DNA from: a virus
Lineage: Duplodnaviria; Caudoviricetes
IMG/VR virus record: IMGVR_UViG_3300038393_000202
Coordinates: 1-24,030 of that record
DNA length: 24,030 nucleotides
Strand: one strand, 5' to 3'
Positions 3,183 to 22,339 of this stretch are shown here, piece by piece. The notes below the pieces were generated by a model that was not told the DNA's origin, ran no database searches, and saw nothing but the letters and a program-made list of their open reading frames with translations. Both the position numbers and the translations under genes were made by a program. Numbering within the stretch: the stretch's first letter is position 1; each line of letters begins with the position of its first letter.

Positions 3183-6100
3183 CTATACGCGCACCGCTTG
3201 TTGCAATCCGCTGAACAACCGCACAACCTGCCGCTCGATGGTCCCATCGGGCAGGCGAACGTCTACCGTGCCGTAGAACTGCATGGCAGACAACCCGCGT
3301 TGAATCGCCCCGACGAGAGCGCCCATGTCCCACGACGGCATCGACGGCGACGAGCGCATGACGGTTGCCAGCGCCTCCGAGAGCATCGGCACGGCGTACC
3401 GGCGAGGTAGCACCATCTCGTCGTCACCCGCTTCGGCGAGGATGGAGAGGTAGCCGCCACTACGCGCCTTGGCGAATCCGCCTTCCGCCATCATGTTGAT
3501 GCGACCGTTACCTCCACCACCGCCGCCGCCCGAAGGTACAGGCACGGGCGGTAGCGTGACGGTCTTGCCAGCGGTGCCCATGCCACTGAGAGCGGAGTTA
3601 ACCGCGTTGATGGCAGACTGCAACGACGGCAGACCCGCGTTGATGCCGCTGACGATGTTGCCGATGAGCGACGACGCCTTCTTGTAGAACTCAGGGTCGA
3701 GTGCCGCCATCTTCGCCAACTGACCGACGACCTTCTCGTCAACGCCCTTCAACGCTTCGTCGATGGCGGCAGAGGACTCCTCCAAGTCCTTCTTGTTGTC
3801 CTCAAGCGCGGTCTTGCGAGCCTCCATCTCCGACTTGATGTAGGTGAGTAGCGCCTGTAACGCCTCGGTCATGACGCGTTGTTGCTCCTGCAACGCCTCC
3901 TGCTCGGCCTGCAACTTCTCCTTGCGGAGTTCAGCCTCCTTGCGAGCGGCGTCCATCTGGTCTTGGATGGACTCGCGTGCGTCCTGCTTGTCCCACTCGC
4001 GGCGTTGTTCCGCCCACGTCTGCTCCTCCTCCGCAACCTGCTTCCGCAGAGCGGCGAGTTCGAACGGGTCGGTCGTCCACACCATCTGGTCGTGCAGAGC
4101 CTTCAACCGCTTGGTGTGCTCATCGGTTGACTTCTGACGCTCGTCCTGCTTGTCCTGTGCGTCGAGAGCGTCAAGTTGGACCTGCAACGCCGCCAACTTC
4201 GTCTCCAACTCGCGGTCGATGCTCTTGAGTTCGTTGGCGATAGCCTTGAGGCGGTCCTCGGTGGCATCACCAACAGCCTCCAAGTACCCTTCGGCGTTGA
4301 ACGCGAACGACTTGAGCATGGCAAGGTCGGACTTCATCAATGAGGCGAACGCCGCGGGGTCGAGGTCGCCAAGGTCGACGTTCTTGAACGCGGCGAGTGC
4401 ATCGTTGATGAGCGACTGCACACCGCCCATCGACGGCATGGTGGCACCAGTGGGTAGCCCCTGCAAAGCACCGAACGCCTTCTCAAGCGCGTGACGTGCA
4501 TCACCGCGACTGTCACCGCGACCGGCTTCGTCGTAGAGGGTGAGTACGTCTTCGAGCAACTTCACCTGCGCGGCGATGTCCGACTTCTTCTTCTCCAGCG
4601 CCGACGTGATGCGGGAGGTCCACAACTCCTTGAACGCCTTCGCCTGCTCGTCGTTGAGAGCCTTCGTCGCAGATGCCGCCGCGCCCGTCGTGCGGTCCAA
4701 CTGCTCTAGGGCGAAGATGTAGGCGTCAAGGATGATGGTGCCGTCGTCGTACATCTGCTTGAGGTCGTCGAGGCTCTTTGTCAACTGGCGCGTGGCGGCA
4801 TTGTCCTCGCGGGCGAGGTCTGACTTCTCCTTCTGGATGCGTAGCCACTCGGCGGAGTTGCCGCCTGACGTGGCGAGCATCTTCTCCATAGCCGCACCAA
4901 GGTCAGCGTACGCCTTCTTGCCTTCCTCTGACGAGGTGTTGACCTTCGACTGCGCTTCTGCAAGTGCGGTGTAGGCGGCACGGGCGGATTCCGCCTGCTC
5001 GTGGAGTACCGCCTGCTTGTCGGAGAGCAATCCCGCCAGCGCCGCCCGCTCTGTATCAGCCTGCAACAACTCCTCGGTACTCGCACCCTCGCGGGTCAGG
5101 TACGCGATGCGCTCCTTGCGGATGGCGATGTCGCGCTCGATGGCGTCAGAACGGCGACCGATGGCGTCCGTCTCAGCGGTGATGTTGTCAACGATGGTGG
5201 CGATTTTACCCTTGCCGTCATCACCAGTTCCGAACTGACCGGCACCATCACCAGCGCCAGAGCCAGAACCACCGCCACCGTTGAGCTTGTCGAGTTCCGC
5301 GTAGAGGTCAGCGAGGAGCTTCTGCCGCTCAATCTTGCGCTTGTCGAGGATGGACTTCACCGCGCCGTTCATGCGGTCTTCGCTCTCGATGGCGGCGAGG
5401 TAGTGTTGAGCGGCAGACTGCATGTAGCCGTCCGACAGGCTCTTGAGGTCGTCACCCATCCCCTTGAGGAACGGCACCTTGCCAATCGTCTCACCCAAGG
5501 AGGCTGTAAACTTACCAGAGGACTCGAACATCCACCCAAGGAAGTTGTGCCACGCCTTCTTCATCGTCTCAATCACGCCGGTCCACCCAAGGGAGAGCAT
5601 GTCGAAGAACGTGAAGTCTTTCCACCAAGCGGCGTGCATGACATACAGTTCCTTGAGGGACTTCTTGACCTCCTCGATTTGGTCACGGAGAGCCTGCTTG
5701 TAGTCGGCGGTCTGCTTGTCGATCTCGGCGCGCAGGCTCTTGGTCTTCTCCTTCTCGGCGTTGACAACGGTATCAACCGCGTCTTCCGCGAAGTGCGCGT
5801 TCTCCAAGCGAGCGGCAGTTTCCTCGCCAAGTGCGTCCGTCACTTGTTGGATGACCTGCGCCTGCTTGTCCGCCGCACGAGTAACCCCATCAGGGTCGTC
5901 ACCCGCGAGAGCATCTTGCCGCGCCTTCTCCAACGCACGCCACTCGTCAGCGTGCTTCTTGATCGCAAGCACGTTGTCGGCGTGAACCTTTGCCTGCGCT
6001 TCGAGCGAACGGATGGAGCCGTCCATTTCCGACTGCAACTGCGCAAAGGTGTTCTGTAGGCGGTTGACGTTCTTGTCCATGACGTAGATGGCACCGCCGA

Positions 6101-8252
6101 CGATGGCGAGAAGTGCGAGGATGCCCGCGAACTCCACGGCAGACCCGCCCTTAAGAGCGGCGGCAAGCCCACCCGCATCGCGCATAGCTTGAATCTGCTT
6201 GCGCACGCCCATCAGAGACTCAGCCAACCCAAGACCAACCGTGTACTTCATCGCCATGTTCAGAGCGCCGACGCTACCCATCAGCAGACCCGTCGCAATT
6301 GCCGCCTTCCGAAGAGTCGGAGGCAAGTCATTGAACCACTCCACCGCCGAGCGCCCCACATCGACTGCGGCCTTGAACGAGTCGAGCACGCCTCCATCCT
6401 CTGCGAGCGCGTACCCGAACTCTTGGAACGCCGCCTTCATCGACTCGACCTTCTTCGAGGCAGTCTGCATGGTGCGCTCGTTCTCGCGCATCGAGTAGCC
6501 TAGCGCCTGCTCCTGCGTGTTGACGACCTCTTGGACCTGCGCGAAGTTCTTGAGGAGCGCGATGAAGTAGTTGCGGCGGTAGACACCAGCACCCGTCTGC
6601 ATGATGTCGCGCTTCTGAAGGTCCGTCCACTCCTCCAGCGTGCCGGTCGCATCTGCCATCGACTCCGAGAACATGCCCGCGAGGTCTGCCTGCTCCATCA
6701 TCGAGTCCTGCACATCGGTACTCAGACCGTCCCAATTCTTAGCGAGGTCCGAGATGATGTCGTAGACAGGACGCAACTTATCGGTAGCGGCGTCTGCAAA
6801 GGCGGGGATGCCGCTACCTTGCAACGTCTCCAAGAACTTGCCCTTCGACATGTAGGAGATGATGGAGTTAAGCGAATTTCCGACTTCCTTGCCAGAACGT
6901 CCAGAGGCGGTTTTCATCGCCGTCAGCAGACCAATCGTCTGCTCAAGGGTGATGTTGGCGTTTTTCGCCGCACCGGACGAGCGAAGAAGACCATCCACCA
7001 AGTCCTGTGATGTGACGGCGTACTGATCGGCGACGAGGTTAATCTTGTCGATGACGCCCGTGAGCTGGTCGGCTTGCAAACCCCACTGAGACATGATACC
7101 GATGAGCGACTGAGTGGCTTGCTCCGCATCAAGTTCAGCTGTGTTGAGAGCCAACAACGAGGCGCGAGTGAGTTCGATGCTCTGCTTCACGTCGTAACCA
7201 GCCTGCGCCCAACGGAGCATCACGTCATGGACATCTTGGAAGGAGAACCCGAACTCCTGTCCTAATTCAAAGATAGCCTTACGCATGTCTTCCAACTTGA
7301 ACAGCGGGTCTTCCATAACGCGCCCAAGTTCAATCATCTTCATCTCGATGGAAGAAACGTCGTCGATGCCAGCCCGTATCGCCTGCATACCACCGAATGC
7401 CACGGCCCCAGTAAATAGCCAATCCAACCTGCGATTCAGCATAGAACTGAAACGTCCACGCTGATCGGCGGCGAGAGTAGACACTTGCGCGGCAATCGCC
7501 TTTGTCTCCGCTTGGTTCGCCGCGACCTGCTTGACCTGCTCTGCGGTCAACTGCTTTCCGAGCGCAATCTGCTCCTGATATTCCTTCGTCTCTTGCCGCA
7601 AGACGGCAAGCCGGTCCTTGATAACGCCATCGCCGACGCGCTCCATTTTGATGCGCGACTGAATGGCGGCGAGTTGTGCCTCCAGTTGCGGAAGCGACGA
7701 CTCGGACGCGCCGCGCACCTTGTCAGCGGCGGCGGAATCGGCGGCTTGCTTCTTCGCTTCGGCGGCTAGTTGCTTGTCAACGGCGAGTCCGTGAGCAAGA
7801 CGCTCCGTTTCCCGTTGCGCGTCCTGCTTCGCCTTCTCTGCCCATGCCGCGTTGACTTCCTTGGCGGTTCGCGCCTCTTCGGTAGCGCGTTGCTTGTCCT
7901 GCGCCGCCTTCTGCGCCCACATCTGCTCACTTTGTTGGATGCGCTCCTTCTCGGCGTTTGCCATCTCGCGCTCTACGGCGAGACCGTGTTGCAAACGTTC
8001 CTTGTCGCGTGCCGCATCTTGCCGTGCCTTCTCTGCCCACATCGCTTGTGTCTGCTTAACAATCTTGGCATCCTGCGCGGCCTTCTGCTTCCACGCAGAC
8101 TCCATCTCCTTGGCGACACGAGCGGCTTCCTTGCCCTGCTTGTCAAGGTTGCGCACCTCGTCAGCAAGGTCTTTGACAGACTTCGCGGCAAGGGTTGTAT
8201 CGAGTTGAATCTTGCCGATAATCCGGGTTGACGCATCATCACGTTCAGGCAT
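3183..8252 (-). CDS. Tail tape measure protein, 1689 aa
   Basis: Very long Ala/Gln/Glu/Lys-rich helical protein with a TP901-like core (GYDVKQSIELTRASLLALNTAELD...INLVAD...SGRSGKEVGNSLNSI), hydrophobic segments and a C-terminal MAEGG..LAEAGDDEMVLP motif. G-rich RBS upstream. Confidence 0.93.
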   Translation of the reverse strand: MPERDDASTRIIGKIQLDTTLAAKSVKDLADEVRNLDKQGKEAARVAKEMESAWKQKAAQDAKIVKQTQAMWAEKARQDAARDKERLQHGLAVEREMANAEKERIQQSEQMWAQKAAQDKQRATEEARTAKEVNAAWAEKAKQDAQRETERLAHGLAVDKQLAAEAKKQAADSAAADKVRGASESSLPQLEAQLAAIQSRIKMERVGDGVIKDRLAVLRQETKEYQEQIALGKQLTAEQVKQVAANQAETKAIAAQVSTLAADQRGRFSSMLNRRLDWLFTGAVAFGGMQAIRAGIDDVSSIEMKMIELGRVMEDPLFKLEDMRKAIFELGQEFGFSFQDVHDVMLRWAQAGYDVKQSIELTRASLLALNTAELDAEQATQSLIGIMSQWGLQADQLTGVIDKINLVADQYAVTSQDLVDGLLRSSGAAKNANITLEQTIGLLTAMKTASGRSGKEVGNSLNSIISYMSKGKFLETLQGSGIPAFADAATDKLRPVYDIISDLAKNWDGLSTDVQDSMMEQADLAGMFSESMADATGTLEEWTDLQKRDIMQTGAGVYRRNYFIALLKNFAQVQEVVNTQEQALGYSMRENERTMQTASKKVESMKAAFQEFGYALAEDGGVLDSFKAAVDVGRSAVEWFNDLPPTLRKAAIATGLLMGSVGALNMAMKYTVGLGLAESLMGVRKQIQAMRDAGGLAAALKGGSAVEFAGILALLAIVGGAIYVMDKNVNRLQNTFAQLQSEMDGSIRSLEAQAKVHADNVLAIKKHADEWRALEKARQDALAGDDPDGVTRAADKQAQVIQQVTDALGEETAARLENAHFAEDAVDTVVNAEKEKTKSLRAEIDKQTADYKQALRDQIEEVKKSLKELYVMHAAWWKDFTFFDMLSLGWTGVIETMKKAWHNFLGWMFESSGKFTASLGETIGKVPFLKGMGDDLKSLSDGYMQSAAQHYLAAIESEDRMNGAVKSILDKRKIERQKLLADLYAELDKLNGGGGSGSGAGDGAGQFGTGDDGKGKIATIVDNITAETDAIGRRSDAIERDIAIRKERIAYLTREGASTEELLQADTERAALAGLLSDKQAVLHEQAESARAAYTALAEAQSKVNTSSEEGKKAYADLGAAMEKMLATSGGNSAEWLRIQKEKSDLAREDNAATRQLTKSLDDLKQMYDDGTIILDAYIFALEQLDRTTGAAASATKALNDEQAKAFKELWTSRITSALEKKKSDIAAQVKLLEDVLTLYDEAGRGDSRGDARHALEKAFGALQGLPTGATMPSMGGVQSLINDALAAFKNVDLGDLDPAAFASLMKSDLAMLKSFAFNAEGYLEAVGDATEDRLKAIANELKSIDRELETKLAALQVQLDALDAQDKQDERQKSTDEHTKRLKALHDQMVWTTDPFELAALRKQVAEEEQTWAEQRREWDKQDARESIQDQMDAARKEAELRKEKLQAEQEALQEQQRVMTEALQALLTYIKSEMEARKTALEDNKKDLEESSAAIDEALKGVDEKVVGQLAKMAALDPEFYKKASSLIGNIVSGINAGLPSLQSAINAVNSALSGMGTAGKTVTLPPVPVPSGGGGGGGNGRINMMAEGGFAKARSGGYLSILAEAGDDEMVLPRRYAVPMLSEALATVMRSSPSMPSWDMGALVGAIQRGLSAMQFYGTVDVRLPDGTIERQVVRLFSGLQQAVRV

Positions 8253-8267
8253 GTAAACACCCCCCCT

Positions 8268-8313
8268 ACAAAGCGAAGGAGTAGGTACTACCGTACCTAC
8301 TCCTTCGCTTTGT
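8268..8313. terminator. Perfect 21-bp inverted repeat (weak bidirectional terminator or RNA-processing stem)
   Basis: ACAAAGCGAAGGAGTAGGTAC (8268-8288), loop TACC, GTACCTACTCCTTCGCTTTGT (8293-8313). The hairpin is certain; its function is inferred. Confidence 0.6.
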
Positions 8314-8336
8314 GGGACTGCGCCTTAAGGCTCGCC

Positions 8337-8422
8337 GCCAAATAGAACCGCGCCTCGCCAGTCCTGTCCATCCCTGACCCCGCCATACCACGCCTTTGCC
8401 GTACCGCGCCTTGCCTCGCCTC
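8337..8422 (-). repeat. (NN-GGY)n pentamer array B, putative gapped guide RNA
   Basis: Minus strand GA-GGC GA-GGC AA-GGC GC-GGT AC-GGC AAA-GGC GT-GGT AT-GGC GG-GGT CA-GGG AT-GGA CA-GGA CT-GGC GA-GGC GC-GGT (8422-8347): 15 units, 12 GGY, one extra A. Then in-register TC-TAT TT-GGC. Confidence 0.9.
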
Positions 8423-8484
8423 GTTAGCCTATCTCCTCAGCGGTAGGAGGCTACCCTACCGGACTCCCCGAAGGGAGTTTCGAT
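8423..8484 (-). ncRNA. Type II hammerhead ribozyme HH2 with pseudoknot
   Basis: Minus strand ATC-GAAA-CTCCC-TTCG-GGGAG-TC^-CGGTAGG-GTAGCCT-CCTACCG-CTGAGGA-GAT-AGGCTAAC. Complete core (CUGANGA, GAAA, GUC), stems I-III, and loop I TAGCCT pairing with 3' AGGCTA. Predicted cut between 8462 and 8461. Confidence 0.9.
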
Positions 8485-8574
8485 GCCGCGCCAGACCGTG
8501 CCTTTCCATTCCCCGCCCATCCTGACCTTGCCAGACCATGCCCCGTCACGCCAAACCCCACCTTGCGGTGCGAC
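8485..8574 (-). repeat. (NN-GGY)n pentamer array A, putative gapped guide RNA
   Basis: Minus strand GT-CGC AC-CGC AA-GGT GG-GGT TT-GGC GT-GAC GG-GGC AT-GGT CT-GGC AA-GGT CA-GGA TG-GGC GG-GGA AT-GGA AA-GGC AC-GGT CT-GGC GC-GGC: 18 units in exact 5-nt register (12 GGY, 3 GGA, 2 CGC, 1 GAC). Confidence 0.9.
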
Positions 8575-8637
8575 GTTAGCCTATCTCTTCAGTCGTGGTC
8601 GGCCATCTCCACAAGACCGGATTACTCCGGTTTCGAC
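8575..8637 (-). ncRNA. Type II hammerhead ribozyme HH1 with pseudoknot
   Basis: Minus strand GTC-GAAA-CCGGA-GTAA-TCCGG-TC^-TTGTGG-AGATGGCCGA-CCACGA-CTGAAGA-GAT-AGGCTAAC. Complete core; stems differ from HH2 but still pair; loop I TGGCC pairs with 3' GGCTA. Begins immediately after the HNH stop. Predicted cut between 8615 and 8614. Confidence 0.88.
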
Positions 8638-8928
8638 TCAACCATTCCACACCAGTTCGCGCCAGTTCGGGGGGATGATTCCTTTCGCCAGCGCCGACGC
8701 GATCATCCCTCTGTGACGCTGGTCGTCGCGAAGTACGTGACACTTGTAGCAAAGAGTCCGAAGGTTCTTCAAAGAGTTGTCCGCATTCTTTCCGCTCTTG
8801 ATGTGGTCGATGTGGCACTCTTGGAGAGACTGCGGAGCTTGACAACGAACACACCGTCTCCCGTCGCACTCCCATACAATCCGCCTAAGTTCCCGCCACA
8901 CTTCTTTAGGAGGACGTTTCTTAGGCAC
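8638..8928 (-). CDS. HNH endonuclease (McrA-like zinc-binding), 96 aa
   Basis: DGRRCVRC...CHIDHIK...NSLKNLRTLCYKCH = CxxC-DH-N-CxxCH signature. GTG start at 8928 overlaps the end of the RAMP gene by 8 nt. Confidence 0.88.
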   Translation of the reverse strand: MPKKRPPKEVWRELRRIVWECDGRRCVRCQAPQSLQECHIDHIKSGKNADNSLKNLRTLCYKCHVLRDDQRHRGMIASALAKGIIPPNWRELVWNG

Positions 8929-9535
8929 CCCGCTTCGCCTTCTCCTCCTCGATTTCGAAGGACTCAACCACAAAGCGCCCAAATCCGATGCCACGACCAT
9001 CGCCAAGGCCAACGAGCCTTCCCGCATCGTGAATGACCGCTTGCATCTCGCCGCGACTAACAATCGTCACGTCCCAAACGATGGTGAAGGAGCATGACCA
9101 GCCAACAGAAGCGGCTACGCGATAGCGGACGTTGCGGCCCTTGGTGGCTTTGTTGACGACCCCTCTAACATCGAGGTACACGGGTTCATCGACGGTGTTA
9201 ATTAGGTCGGGGTAGATGTTGTCGGGTACGAATCGGTCAACGAGGATACGGTCATCCATTATTTGAAGCGTAGCCGCTACTAGGGACTGGATACTCCCCT
9301 TTCCCTTCTTAGTGTGCTTCGCCGCATCCCGCAAGCACCCGAAAGCGTAACTCGGCTCAAGATACAACTGCTTGTCCTTGGTCATCAGAACAGTGCGCTT
9401 CCACTCTTCTGGATCGTTGCCCGCTACCCCTGTGCGCTCCTTCTTCTCCAGAGGTAGCGCATCCGGGCCAAAGCGGTGCCAAAGAATCGGGCGTGTCCCA
9501 CGAATCGAAACCCGTGCCGTTGCGATGTTTCCCAT
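8921..9535 (-). CDS. Stand-alone RAMP/Cas7-like RNA-binding protein (Vipr-like), 204 aa
   Basis: N-terminal strand VSIRGTRPILWH, LYLEPSYAFGCLRDAA (resembles the RAMP P.IP.SSLKG.LR motif), and C-terminal glycine-rich loop AGRLVGLGDGRGIGFGRF. Strong GAGGAGG RBS. No other cas genes in the window. Confidence 0.78.
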   Translation of the reverse strand: MGNIATARVSIRGTRPILWHRFGPDALPLEKKERTGVAGNDPEEWKRTVLMTKDKQLYLEPSYAFGCLRDAAKHTKKGKGSIQSLVAATLQIMDDRILVDRFVPDNIYPDLINTVDEPVYLDVRGVVNKATKGRNVRYRVAASVGWSCSFTIVWDVTIVSRGEMQAVIHDAGRLVGLGDGRGIGFGRFVVESFEIEEEKAKRGA

Positions 9536-9583: not shown

Positions 9584-9612
9584 GTTATACACCATGTCGA
9601 TATCACTGTCAA
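9584..9612 (-). promoter_or_regulatory. sigma70/sigmaA promoter for the RAMP-HNH-ncRNA unit
   Basis: TTGACA (9612-9607), 17 nt, TATAAC (9589-9584). The -35 overlaps the HTH stop codon. Confidence 0.8.
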
Positions 9613-9794
9613 CCCTCTTCTTTAAGGACAGGCTTCTTCAACTCCGCCACGTCATCGGCGCGAAAGTGGTTCTCCTTGCTACCGACCATCTTGTATGCCT
9701 TGATTCCGCCGCTCTTGATAAGCCGTTGTAAAGTCGGACGTGAGATTCCCAACTCCTTCAACACCTGCGCCGTAGTCAACCATTCCTGTGACAC
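9609..9794 (-). CDS. Excisionase/MerR-like helix-turn-helix DNA-binding protein, 61 aa
   Basis: WLTTAQVLKELGISRPTLQRLIKSGGIKAYK..FRADDV pattern typical of HTH_17/excisionase proteins. GGAAGGGGGAG RBS before GTG. Confidence 0.85.
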   Translation of the reverse strand: MSQEWLTTAQVLKELGISRPTLQRLIKSGGIKAYKMVGSKENHFRADDVAELKKPVLKEEG

Positions 9795-9817: not shown

Positions 9818-9846
9818 AGTATAAGACAATTCATACACCATGTCAA
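9818..9846 (-). promoter_or_regulatory. sigma70/sigmaA promoter for the HTH gene
   Basis: TTGACA (9846-9841), 17 nt, TATACT (9823-9818). Confidence 0.8.
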
Positions 9847-9955: not shown

Positions 9956-10372
9956 ATGGCTAGGAATCGTCGGTTCAAGTTGCCGGATACGCTGACGGAA
10001 AAGGACTGGAACACCCTGCTATCGGTCGCCGTTGATTACGCGATGTGCGAAAACATGGGAGCCTTCATGTCGCACGTCGAGTCCTTTACGTCTACAGTGT
10101 CCGTCATGTGCGGGTTGGAAAGTCCCGAAGTCGCCAACGGGCTAAAGACAACCGCGAAGTCATTCCTCAAGCAGATTGAAGACATCCAAACCGACATGAT
10201 GCTCGCGGCGGCTTCAGCTGGTATCGCCATAGGTAAGCGCGAGGGTCTGCGGGCTGGAATAAAGGCACTCGGCGATAGGTCAGCTAAGAACATGCTTCGA
10301 CTGCTCACGGCCATCACGAGCGACAGGGCCGCAGACAGCACACTCAAGAGCGTTAACAAGGTGACAGCATAG
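9956..10372 (+). CDS. Hypothetical helical protein, 138 aa
   Basis: GAGGAGG RBS at 9940-9946, ATG start, downstream hairpin. No recognised motif. Confidence 0.7.
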   Translation: MARNRRFKLPDTLTEKDWNTLLSVAVDYAMCENMGAFMSHVESFTSTVSVMCGLESPEVANGLKTTAKSFLKQIEDIQTDMMLAAASAGIAIGKREGLRAGIKALGDRSAKNMLRLLTAITSDRAADSTLKSVNKVTA

Positions 10373-10460: not shown

Positions 10461-10484
10461 ACACTTGTAAAGGAGGGATTGGTT

Positions 10485-10835
10485 ATGGAATGGCGTTGCA
10501 CCCGTTGCGGGTCCGACCACATCAATCACAAGCCCAAGAGTGAAATGGGAACGATACCGCTCACAATCCTCATCGCTGGCGGGTTGACCGTTATCGCCTG
10601 GAAGGTGATAGGCGCGCTCACCAACGGCGGAATGTTGGAAGGCGCTATCCTCTTCTTCATGCTCTGCATCGTCACCGTGCCGTTGGTGCTCGTGATTGCT
10701 GTCGTCATCGCATCCGCCATCACCGGCGAGGGCAAGATGCACACCGCAACCTGCCACAACTGCGGCAACGAGTGGCATGAAAAAGGGGCGTGCCCGCCTA
10801 AGCAGACCGCCCCTTCTAGCCATCCATCACGTTGA
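10485..10835 (+). CDS. Small membrane protein with split zinc ribbon (CxxC-2TM-CxxC)
   Basis: AGGAGG (10471-10476) 8 nt before ATG 10485. CTRC, two hydrophobic stretches, then CHNC. Confidence 0.75.
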   Translation: MEWRCTRCGSDHINHKPKSEMGTIPLTILIAGGLTVIAWKVIGALTNGGMLEGAILFFMLCIVTVPLVLVIAVVIASAITGEGKMHTATCHNCGNEWHEKGACPPKQTAPSSHPSR

Positions 10836-13969: not shown

Positions 13970-14599
13970 TTAGGCAACCCACGTCTCGCCCGAGTCGATG
14001 TCCATGAGCGTCAGGTTCCCGCCGTAAGCGGCACCCGTGTCTATACCCACCTTGTCCTCGCCGTACCACGGCTCCCACTTCATCTCACCGTGCAGATTCG
14101 GCGTCGGGGTATGTCCGAAGAACACCTTCTTGCCACGGTAATACTCGTAGAACTCACCGCGAATCCAACAGAGGATGCCTTCACCCTGATTCTCTAGCGG
14201 GTAATCCGCAAGGACGCCAGCGTGAACTAAGATGCAATCCGGTTCCTCGTGGTAGAGAGGTAGACTGTCAAGCCATTCCAACACATCCTGCGGAGGAAGA
14301 CCATCGAAGTCTCGAACGGTCGTCCTTCCGCCGTTGTGTTGCACCCAAAACGCGTGAGCGATTGGGTCACGACTCGCCTCAACAGGCATGGCGTCGTGGT
14401 TGCCCTTCAAGGCGATAGCCCCATCCGCAACGAGCGCCCGCACAATCTCCACCGTCGCCTTGCTGTCGGTGCCTCGGTCAACGTAGTCTCCAAGAAGGAA
14501 CAGCCTGTCCACCTTCGGCTCATAGCCCGCCTTGGCGAGCACTTGCAGAAGGCGATGCCCTTCGCCGTGAATGTCGCTAACCACTAAGCGTCTGCCCAT
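13970..14599 (-). CDS. PPP-family Ser/Thr protein phosphatase (metallophosphoesterase), 209 aa
   Basis: Motifs SDIHG, LGDYVDRG, KGNHD, VHAG, FGHTP, GIDTGAAYGGNLT. Start moved to ATG 14599 with G-rich RBS. Confidence 0.92.
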   Translation of the reverse strand: MGRRLVVSDIHGEGHRLLQVLAKAGYEPKVDRLFLLGDYVDRGTDSKATVEIVRALVADGAIALKGNHDAMPVEASRDPIAHAFWVQHNGGRTTVRDFDGLPPQDVLEWLDSLPLYHEEPDCILVHAGVLADYPLENQGEGILCWIRGEFYEYYRGKKVFFGHTPTPNLHGEMKWEPWYGEDKVGIDTGAAYGGNLTLMDIDSGETWVA

Positions 14600-14613
14600 A
14601 TCGTCACCCCCCC

Positions 14614-15024
14614 CTACCTCTGCGGTCCTGCCAAGCCGAAGAACCCGCGCCCCGTGTTTGGCATGTCGGCGTCGAGTTTGCCAAGGTACTTGTCGCGTTC
14701 GGCTTCGAGGTTTGCCCTCTTCCTCTCCCAATCGACCGTTACCTCGTACTCGCCACTCGGACCCTTCTGGCGCGACGGTAGCCGTGCCGCCATAGAGTCC
14801 ACGACGATGTGGGCACACTCGCACACAACCGCCGCTTCAAGGTACACGCGCTTGTCATCGACGAGCGATTCCCACCCGTCCACGGCACCGATGACGTTAG
14901 CCTCTGCGACGGTAATCACTTCGGGTTGCTGGAGGACCGCATCGGGGAGGTAGGAATCATCGACGCCCACCTTCGCCCGAACGCGGTCCTGCCAGCCAGC
15001 GGCGGTCAAGATGCGGTTACTCAT
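14614..15024 (-). CDS. Head-tail adaptor/connector
   Basis: 136 aa directly after the capsid gene. Helical N-terminus, then KGPSGEYEVT strand as in gp15-like adaptors. Confidence 0.7.
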   Translation of the reverse strand: MSNRILTAAGWQDRVRAKVGVDDSYLPDAVLQQPEVITVAEANVIGAVDGWESLVDDKRVYLEAAVVCECAHIVVDSMAARLPSRQKGPSGEYEVTVDWERKRANLEAERDKYLGKLDADMPNTGRGFFGLAGPQR

Positions 15025-21340: not shown

Positions 21341-21771
21341 TCGCCCTCACCATCCCCATCCACATGCACCTCTGCGGTCTGGGTGGCGAAGTTGAACTTG
21401 AACACGGTGCGCGACTGGTTAGCCTTCTTCCGTGCCTCCTTGCGTTGTGGCACCATGTCGTCGAGGATTTTGCCACGCTTATCCGTGAGGATGCCGAACG
21501 CAATCGCCTTATCCTTGACGGGCACCTCGTCCCACTTGGTGCGCTTCAGCGACTCACCGATGTCGCCAAGGATGGCGTCCAAGTCACCGATGCGCTCTAC
21601 ATCCTTCTCACGAGCGGCAACAGCGGCGGTCTTGACCTTCTCCTCCAACGCCGCAACCGCCTTCGCTACCTCGTCCACGACGGCGACCGCGCTCCCCGCG
21701 TCCTCCAGCGGCGGCACGTCCACGTCGATTACCACATCGTTCGGGTCCACCTTCTTGCGTCTAGGTGCCAT
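21337..21771 (-). CDS. Probable terminase small subunit
   Basis: ATG 21771 after AAGGAGG; ATGA overlap with terL. AIAFGILTDK helix resembles small-terminase oligomerisation segments. Confidence 0.6.
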   Translation of the reverse strand: MAPRRKKVDPNDVVIDVDVPPLEDAGSAVAVVDEVAKAVAALEEKVKTAAVAAREKDVERIGDLDAILGDIGESLKRTKWDEVPVKDKAIAFGILTDKRGKILDDMVPQRKEARKKANQSRTVFKFNFATQTAEVHVDGDGEGE

Positions 21772-22339
21772 CTGCACACACCTCCTTCTTCCAACCGTCA
21801 CGAACTCTCATCAACACCGCTTTCCGCGCTAGCGCCCGTAGCTCGTCCAACGACAGTACCGCCGCGAGTCTGTCCTGCAACTTCCGCCGTGGCGCACTAC
21901 TCAGCCCACGCGCCCGTCCAAGTTCCTTGAGTGCGGCGTACATGTCGTCGCGCCACATGAGCGCGGCTAGGTAGACAGGTTGAATCGCTGGATTGGGACT
22001 TGCCTCTCGGTAGATAGTGAACGCCACCTTGTCGCTCGCGGGCACAACAAGAACGCCCCACCACTCAGGCAGGACGGCAAGAGCCTTGTCGAGGTGGCAA
22101 GCGGCGGTGACGAGCCAGCAACGGTCGAGAACGCGCCCGTAGTAGCGCACCTGCCGCCCTAACCGTTGAACGGAATCAACCGGACTCTTAATCTCGAATC
22201 CAACCAGTTCGTCACCGCACAACACCACGTCCACGATGGATGAACCACTACAGACGCCCATCTCGTTGACGAGAGCGGCATTCGGATGGCGTTCCGCTAG
22301 GTAGGCGTGTAGCGCACGCCGTATCTCAGGGTCACGCAT
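21761..22339 (-). CDS. sce7726-family PD-(D/E)xK nuclease-like protein
   Basis: DPEIR..L, NEMG..VDV...GFEIKSPVDSVQRLGRQVRYYGRVLD, LPEWWG, ALMWRDD pattern. AGAGGAGG RBS. Confidence 0.75.
   Translation of the reverse strand: MRDPEIRRALHAYLAERHPNAALVNEMGVCSGSSIVDVVLCGDELVGFEIKSPVDSVQRLGRQVRYYGRVLDRCWLVTAACHLDKALAVLPEWWGVLVVPASDKVAFTIYREASPNPAIQPVYLAALMWRDDMYAALKELGRARGLSSAPRRKLQDRLAAVLSLDELRALARKAVLMRVRDGWKKEVCADGT

Follow-up and report, generated by a model that had tools for sequence, protein, structure and literature searches.

The VIPR cassette and its setting

The array that holds two predicted hammerhead ribozymes in the viral record IMGVR_UViG_3300038393_000202 (positions 1 to 24,030, the whole stretch analyzed, hereafter the window) is a VIPR locus and not a CRISPR-like one. 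In the reading that we consider probable, the hammerheads would cut two guides out of the transcript, Vipr would be guided by them to the tape-measure gene of related phages, and an HNH protein encoded in the same cassette would cut that gene. The locus combines a vipr gene whose product has a RAMP fold, GGY/NN tracts beside vipr, and an accessory (vap) gene, here encoding the HNH protein. No cas gene was found among the window proteins scanned, no CRISPR-like repeat family was detected, and a single RAMP is present.

The minus strand of the window encodes a phage morphogenesis module, with terminase, capsid, and tape-measure genes recognized by Pfam and a portal gene recognized by PHROG. The public sequencing runs that match it best are from soil and rhizosphere DNA, with no RNA run among those listed as matching; positions 8124-9223 recur with zero differences in a contig of one public DNA run, possibly the source sample. 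The cassette is located immediately upstream of the tape-measure gene and is ordered as promoter, small HTH gene, 204-aa gene, 96-aa HNH gene, two hammerhead units, and 24-bp hairpin. Its features are as follows.

9818..9846, minus strand: sigma-70-like promoter, 11/12 consensus matches
9609..9794, minus strand: 61-aa HTH_17 (excisionase/MerR-like) gene, Pfam PF12728, E 2.8e-11
9584..9612, minus strand: second promoter-like site, directly upstream of vipr, read by eye and not flagged by the promoter scan
8921..9535, minus strand: Vipr (RAMP fold, 204 aa), assigned by structure and profile matches
8638..8928, minus strand: HNH accessory gene (96 aa), PF01844, E 1.2e-7
8574..8637, minus strand: type II hammerhead 1, predicted cut 8615/8614, 5-pair pseudoknot
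8462..8614, minus strand: predicted 153-nt vrRNA 1, bounded by the putative cuts of the descriptor
8483..8572, minus strand: guide tract 1, 18 pentamers (2 CGC-NN, then 16 GGN/GAC-NN)
8422..8484, minus strand: type II hammerhead 2, predicted cut 8462/8461, 6-pair pseudoknot
8345..8420, minus strand: guide tract 2, 5 + 10 pentamers (15 units), one extra A at 8395
8265..8316, minus strand: 24-bp hairpin, z -9.4, no T run after the hairpin
3183..8252, minus strand: tape-measure protein gene (1689 aa) flanking the cassette, PF10145, E 1e-30

The hairpin at 8265..8316 is likely the 3′ end of vrRNA 2. The HTH_17 gene product is a possible regulator of the cassette; identical copies of an 11-nt motif occur in the two promoter-like sites on either side of its gene (9844 and 9598, minus strand) and are possibly an operator for autoregulation. 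Between the tail genes and the cassette lie two ORFs on the opposite strand (9956-10372 and 10479-10835, plus strand), one without a family match and the other a likely zinc-ribbon membrane protein; a similar small gene is present in L001. Elsewhere in the window, a calcineurin-like phosphoesterase (13970-14824, minus strand) is encoded amid the head-tail genes and a phrog_984 protein (21761-22339, minus strand) upstream of the terminase region. The closest viral relative (L001:977-4136, 70%) has vipr, HNH, and a tract with no hammerhead, and is positioned after tail-tube-like and chaperone-like genes and before what appears by eye to be a tape-measure start.

Two type II hammerhead units

We searched the window with a type II descriptor consisting of the stem II 5′ strand, GAAA, stem III, NUH, stem I, CUGANGA, and the stem II 3′ strand. 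It returned exactly two units, both on the minus strand, with starts at 8637 and 8484; a search of 60 order-1 Markov windows on both strands gave none. Both units have the CUGANGA and GAAA core, an NUH site, and three stems with stem II open; hammerhead 1 includes one G-U pair in stem II, and the 3′ segments of the two units are 18/19 identical. The original prediction, made from the sequence alone, had described the same core, stems, pseudoknots, and 3′ identity, all of which are borne out here, and its cut positions and 153-nt spacing were reproduced by the descriptor. It had also read the differing stems of the two copies as covariation, for which two copies alone are insufficient.

The pseudoknot between loop I and the 3′ tail was not a criterion in selecting units. 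Over 100 distinct units of the subfamily, it averaged 5.33 pairs in the native combination vs 4.39 when tails were swapped between units, and the native mean exceeded all 500 swaps (maximum 4.69). An Rfam scan, the check proposed with the original prediction, reported neither unit of the window, which fell short of the RF02276 gathering score, though four homologous units in L090 and L020 scored above it and a fifth just below. Pseudoknot-free minimum-energy folding did not yield the hammerhead fold (z ~0). In pseudoknot-free folding of the precursor, stem I of hammerhead 1 had a pair probability of ~0.04 vs 0.6-0.8 for hammerhead 2; unit 1 may therefore be slower. A MAFFT alignment of 9 units misplaced stem III and was used only for the sequence-only model. 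Among relatives, the L020 hammerhead at 951-1015 has CCGAUGA as a variant core, and its pseudoknot is identical to the one in window unit 2. In L090 the array has four hammerheads and then ends, at 1830-1870, in a hairpin resembling the 5′ half of a ribozyme in degenerate form, as a terminal repeat might.

We are highly confident that self-cleavage at 8615/8614 and 8462/8461 would free the guide RNAs from the vipr-HNH message. The predicted vrRNA 1 comprises the 3′ half of ribozyme 1, tract 1, and then the UUCG hairpin of ribozyme 2 as a 3′ cap.

Guide tracts built of pentamers

The stretches between the ribozymes, on which the original prediction was silent, are tracts of GGN-NN pentamers, the mark of VIPR guide RNAs. 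Unbroken runs reach 12 and 10 units, vs a longest run of 6 in 200 Markov windows, and the last NN of tract 1 doubles as part of stem II of hammerhead 2. Among the GG-type units, 24/31 are GGY and 7/31 are not. Tracts were also found in 73/94 related loci (14 of them viral, the others the best 80 of 213 metagenomic loci), where GGA or GGG accounts for ~11% of units. Together with the replacement in this clade of SUSP1 Vipr W178 by Gly, this frequency suggests a looser third position.

The Vipr and HNH proteins

Structure comparison matched the 204-aa protein to Csm3 (Foldseek E 1e-8) and to VIA (Z 10.5, rmsd 4.1 over 164 residues), and it has a RAMP fold with thumb and G-loop, encoded outside a CRISPR locus. 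For comparison with SUSP1, the vipr gene of that phage was picked out by its flanking tracts and by the residue numbers in the structure paper. Family alignment of the two proteins gave a probability of 97.5% (E 6.8e-12; 31% over 166 columns), both match phrog_4652, and SUSP1 residues H17, R138, D177, and R179 align to H20, R139, D179, and R181 of the window Vipr, with W178 replaced by G180. A tblastn search of cultured phages with Vipr gave no match. Vipr homologues number 1880 in all. In the published structures, each Vipr binds one GGY unit (10.64898/2026.04.26.720927). There is little doubt in our minds that one Vipr would bind per pentamer here and that DNA would be read with a one-base skip, as in SUSP1.

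The HNH gene overlaps the vipr stop, and its own stop abuts hammerhead 1. A homologue is encoded at most 800 nt downstream of vipr in 53 of the 60 loci long enough to tell, within the set of 94 that includes the best 80 of 213 metagenomic loci. Residues D40, H41, and H63 and four Cys are invariant in 22 aligned sequences. That the HNH protein cleaves DNA, rather than only aiding repression, is in our estimate slightly the better supposition. A tract of L022 matches the C terminus of the window HNH at the residue level (2/100 shuffles), which may reflect targeting of rival cassettes or chance.

Both guides resemble the adjacent tape-measure gene

We decoded the guides by the published VIPR one-base-skip code, in which NN pairs are read and one base is skipped; natural VIPR targets have been called at a match threshold of 80%. 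Below that threshold, each guide has a match in the tape-measure gene.

8193..8237, minus strand: guide 2, tape-measure codons 6-20, 21/30 NN bases (70%), in frame
7062..7115, minus strand: guide 1, tape-measure codons 380-397, a conserved core motif, 20/36 NN bases (56%), in frame

The guide 2 match was equaled genome-wide in 8/300 shuffles, no skip length other than 1 stood out, and among in-frame gene starts, a test chosen after the match was known, it was equaled in 2/3000 shuffles. When compared at the residue level with all six frames of the whole window, each guide had its best match in the tape-measure gene (guide 1, 25/2000 shuffles; guide 2, 13/2000), while in a foreign control 2/104 guides of relatives reached 1 in 100 against the window. 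Guide 1 agrees with the tape-measure family motif at its near-invariant T, I, Q, and W columns (156-160 of 160 homologues). The two CGC units of tract 1 lengthen this match, and guide 1 limited to its 16 GG-type units gave no significant match (199/2000 shuffles). This resemblance of both guides to the adjacent tape-measure gene, together with the own-locus matches and codon swaps of relatives described next, is the part that we did not find in print in the literature located.

Own-locus matches and codon swaps in relatives

For the relatives, we tested 66 guides from 45 loci of at least 3 kb, with 9 duplicate loci dropped and own loci masked. At the base level, 9/66 guides matched their own locus at 1 in 100 or better vs 0/264 foreign pairings; at the residue level, 12/66 resembled their own neighborhood vs 4/198 foreign-locus controls, and one or two of these 12 may be chance. 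The other 54/66 guides had no own-locus match. A second look at 9 loci yielded 8 matches in 7 of them. Each match is in the gene beside the cassette, 19 to 1181 nt away, with 5 within 140 nt; the loci reach only 3 kb, which limits the distance of a match. The matched flanking genes include portal, AAA ATPase, and HerA, and several matches (L040, L070) are close to the flanking gene's 3′ end, beside the cassette.

We then combined the 12 residue-level matches with the two window guides. The same Leu, Ser, or Arg was specified by guide and own gene at 38 positions, and at 29/38 the gene used the other codon family, vs 16.3 expected from its own codon usage (p 3e-5). This signal comes from the relatives; the window gives two such positions, one swapped and one not. 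Since codon-family swaps are the only synonymous changes visible to a wobble-skipping guide, the own alleles appear selected to escape, and we regard the swaps as a likely sign of self-escape.

Searches for outside targets

For neither guide was a target of 80% or more found in a plausible element. Exact-pattern scans with guide 2 returned 0, 13, and 23 viral stretches, with a best match of 22/30 bases and no convincing tape-measure start; the guide 1 scan returned 86 viral stretches, the best at 23/32 bases. The one genome match for guide 1, 26/32 bases and antisense in a Bacteroidetes SpoU methylase gene, was rejected as chance, the skipped base falling by eye on codon position 1. Against the 94 related loci (the 14 viral ones plus the best 80 of 213 metagenomic), the window guides did not beat shuffles; they had no match in five viral records scanned and never fitted tape-measure homologues at more than 9/18 residues (guide 1) or 8/15 (guide 2). 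We found no close relative of the tape-measure N terminus, with none above 60% in cultured phages, and 0 viral stretches with the tail-plus-tract pattern.

Hammerheads are an optional part of the array

Of the same 94 loci, which comprise the 14 viral ones plus the best 80 of 213 metagenomic and include some duplicates and incomplete loci, 4 carried the hammerhead; a hammerhead linker was present in 3/29 related loci having two adjacent tracts; in L020, L023, and L085 no ribozyme precedes the first tract. On a quick tree built with no bootstrap, the five hammerhead carriers require at least 3 changes across well-supported branches, incomplete loci blurring absence. The same hammerhead subfamily occurs in 81 viral loci (L196-L276), where 80 matches fold as hammerheads and neither a tract nor Vipr was found nearby. 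The array hammerhead looks like a common phage motif that was recruited more than once. Other conserved hairpin-like linkers occur in this clade's arrays (L039, L078, L083, L075, L084, L065, and L061); those of L039, L061, L075, and L078 had no convincing match in Rfam.

Discussion

In the mechanism that we favor, the two hammerheads would cut one transcript into two guide RNAs, and Vipr would coat the freed guides, one protein per pentamer. The complex would attack the tape-measure genes of related phages by one-base-skip reading, with the HNH protein cutting the rival gene and the own allele escaping by divergence. That the targets are homologous tape-measure alleles from which the own allele has diverged is, judging by the guide matches and the codon swaps, likely.

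An extension of this mechanism, which we put forward tentatively and think rather less probable, is that the clade of Vipr and HNH represents a free-standing homing element guided by RNA. The guides would be aimed at the cognate allele of the gene beside the insertion site (the tape-measure gene in the window; a portal, AAA ATPase, HerA, or other gene in relatives), and HNH would break that allele in cassette-free kin, so that repair templated by the carrier would either copy the cassette or exclude the rival; the carrier's allele would escape by Leu, Ser, and Arg codon-family swaps. Both the resemblance to the flanking gene and the codon swaps are observed, and no near-perfect cognate allele was found. 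Two of the VIPR preprints do not contain the word homing, and no paper combining VIPR, vrRNA, and homing was found in the 2026 literature searched, a search that mostly did not extend to subscription journals.

The main rival to cutting is repression alone. Processing and targets would be the same, with the complex only repressing tape-measure transcription in a rival such as a satellite or related prophage and HNH acting as a DNA-binding helper. In the available parts of the relevant preprints (10.64898/2026.04.26.720920; 10.64898/2026.10.15.759431), no VIPR activity other than repression is demonstrated and no nuclease activity is shown for an accessory protein, and SUSP1 satellites carry a tape-measure gene homologous to that of their helper (10.64898/2026.04.26.720920; 10.64898/2026.10.15.759431). 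Guide 2 also points at the 5′ end of the gene. However, the catalytic and zinc residues of HNH are invariant in the 22 sequences, and the L040 and L070 matches fall by the 3′ end of the flanking gene rather than at a promoter; we consider repression alone unlikely, though the most serious competitor.

Alternatively, the guides could be copies from the own flanking gene that are now decaying or that tune its expression through weak binding. It is indeed the own gene that gives the best matches known, and the scans yielded no outside target. Yet guides and gene differ mostly by conservative residues and by Leu/Ser/Arg codon-family swaps, which indicate protein-level homology and selection against self-pairing and not drift, and matches of 56-70% are below the 80% used for natural targets. 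We consider this origin improbable.

The original prediction saw a CRISPR-like array in which self-cleavage replaces a processing nuclease and yields contiguous guides with a constant 5′ handle for RAMP loading, perhaps circularized by RtcB. Hammerhead cleavage leaves 5′-OH and 2′,3′-cyclic phosphate ends, which both RNAs would carry, and both would begin with a similar ribozyme half, but the spacers are pentamer tracts, most related arrays have no ribozyme, first guides occur without a handle, and a circle would probably restore an intact hammerhead, which makes this account very improbable. What stands of it is a ribozyme that may act in place of the nuclease, and RAMP loading; both fit the evidence and have already been described for VIPR arrays (10.64898/2026.04.26.720920). 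The information of the 153-nt RNA would reside in the NN pairs of its GGY/NN tract and not in a contiguous guide. A handle is not needed, given one Vipr per GGY, the first tracts of L020, L023, and L085, and the 3/29 hammerhead linkers. Circularization is unsupported: no RtcB match was found among the window proteins scanned, and because the 3′ halves of both units start with an identical stem II strand, joined ends would rebuild a complete hammerhead and presumably be cut again.

A ribozyme-spaced array is already published, so the cassette adds a member and a compact test case of ~1.3 kb with Vipr, HNH, and two predicted self-released guides. The added pattern outweighs the array: in this clade, guides point at homologues of the adjoining gene, and the own genes carry codon-family swaps at the sites the guides match. 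If this is true, it would name natural targets for nuclease-bearing VIPRs, provide a self/non-self rule for a PAM-less system, connect an ancestor of class 1 CRISPR with homing-type selfish spread, and offer a small, naturally occurring RNA-guided DNA nuclease that processes its own multiplex guides.

Comparison with known systems

Hammerhead-interspersed VIPR arrays are described in 10.64898/2026.04.26.720920 (figs S19-S20), with examples from types I and V and a statement that they are confirmed by sRNA-seq; the headline of the original prediction was therefore known. As here, the published arrays have vipr, one accessory gene, and GGY/NN tracts split by predicted hammerheads. According to the same preprint, types III and V, which bear nucleases, occur mostly in defence islands, whereas the present cassette, with its HNH accessory, lies in a phage tail module. 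Going by the legend of fig. S21, we would guess that it is type III. That preprint states that there is no self-match at 80% or more, and its available part does not describe sub-threshold matches to flanking genes; supplements of 10.64898/2026.10.15.759431 include self-targeting scores, and the comparison also took in a further preprint (10.64898/2026.10.21.760802).

The type II VIPR of SUSP1 has a homologous Vipr, the same repeat code, and targets in elements related to the carrier phage. In contrast to the window cassette, it has a DNA-binding Vap1 and a 3′ pseudoknot tail, with a ribozyme unmentioned in the available parts of the two sources, and it represses a satellite recombinase (10.64898/2026.04.26.720927; 10.64898/2026.10.15.759431). 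The tracts of the window are longer than those of SUSP1 (18 + 15 units), and GGA/GGG is commoner. The ribozyme units share the open stem II, hairpin stems I and III, and loop I/3′-tail pseudoknot described for type II pseudoknotted hammerheads (PMC3088659; RF02276), although the RF02276 model reports neither.

For the homing interpretation, the nearest precedents are SegF, SegG, and MobE of T-even phages, intergenic free-standing homing endonucleases that act against a neighboring gene of related phages and lead to marker exclusion (PMC2988022). Their targets lie hundreds to thousands of bases from the insertion site, and the neighboring-gene geometry of the present cassette recalls this arrangement. 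Those enzymes recognize DNA by protein (PMC2988022), whereas here RNA guides would specify the site, with cutting and mobility putative.
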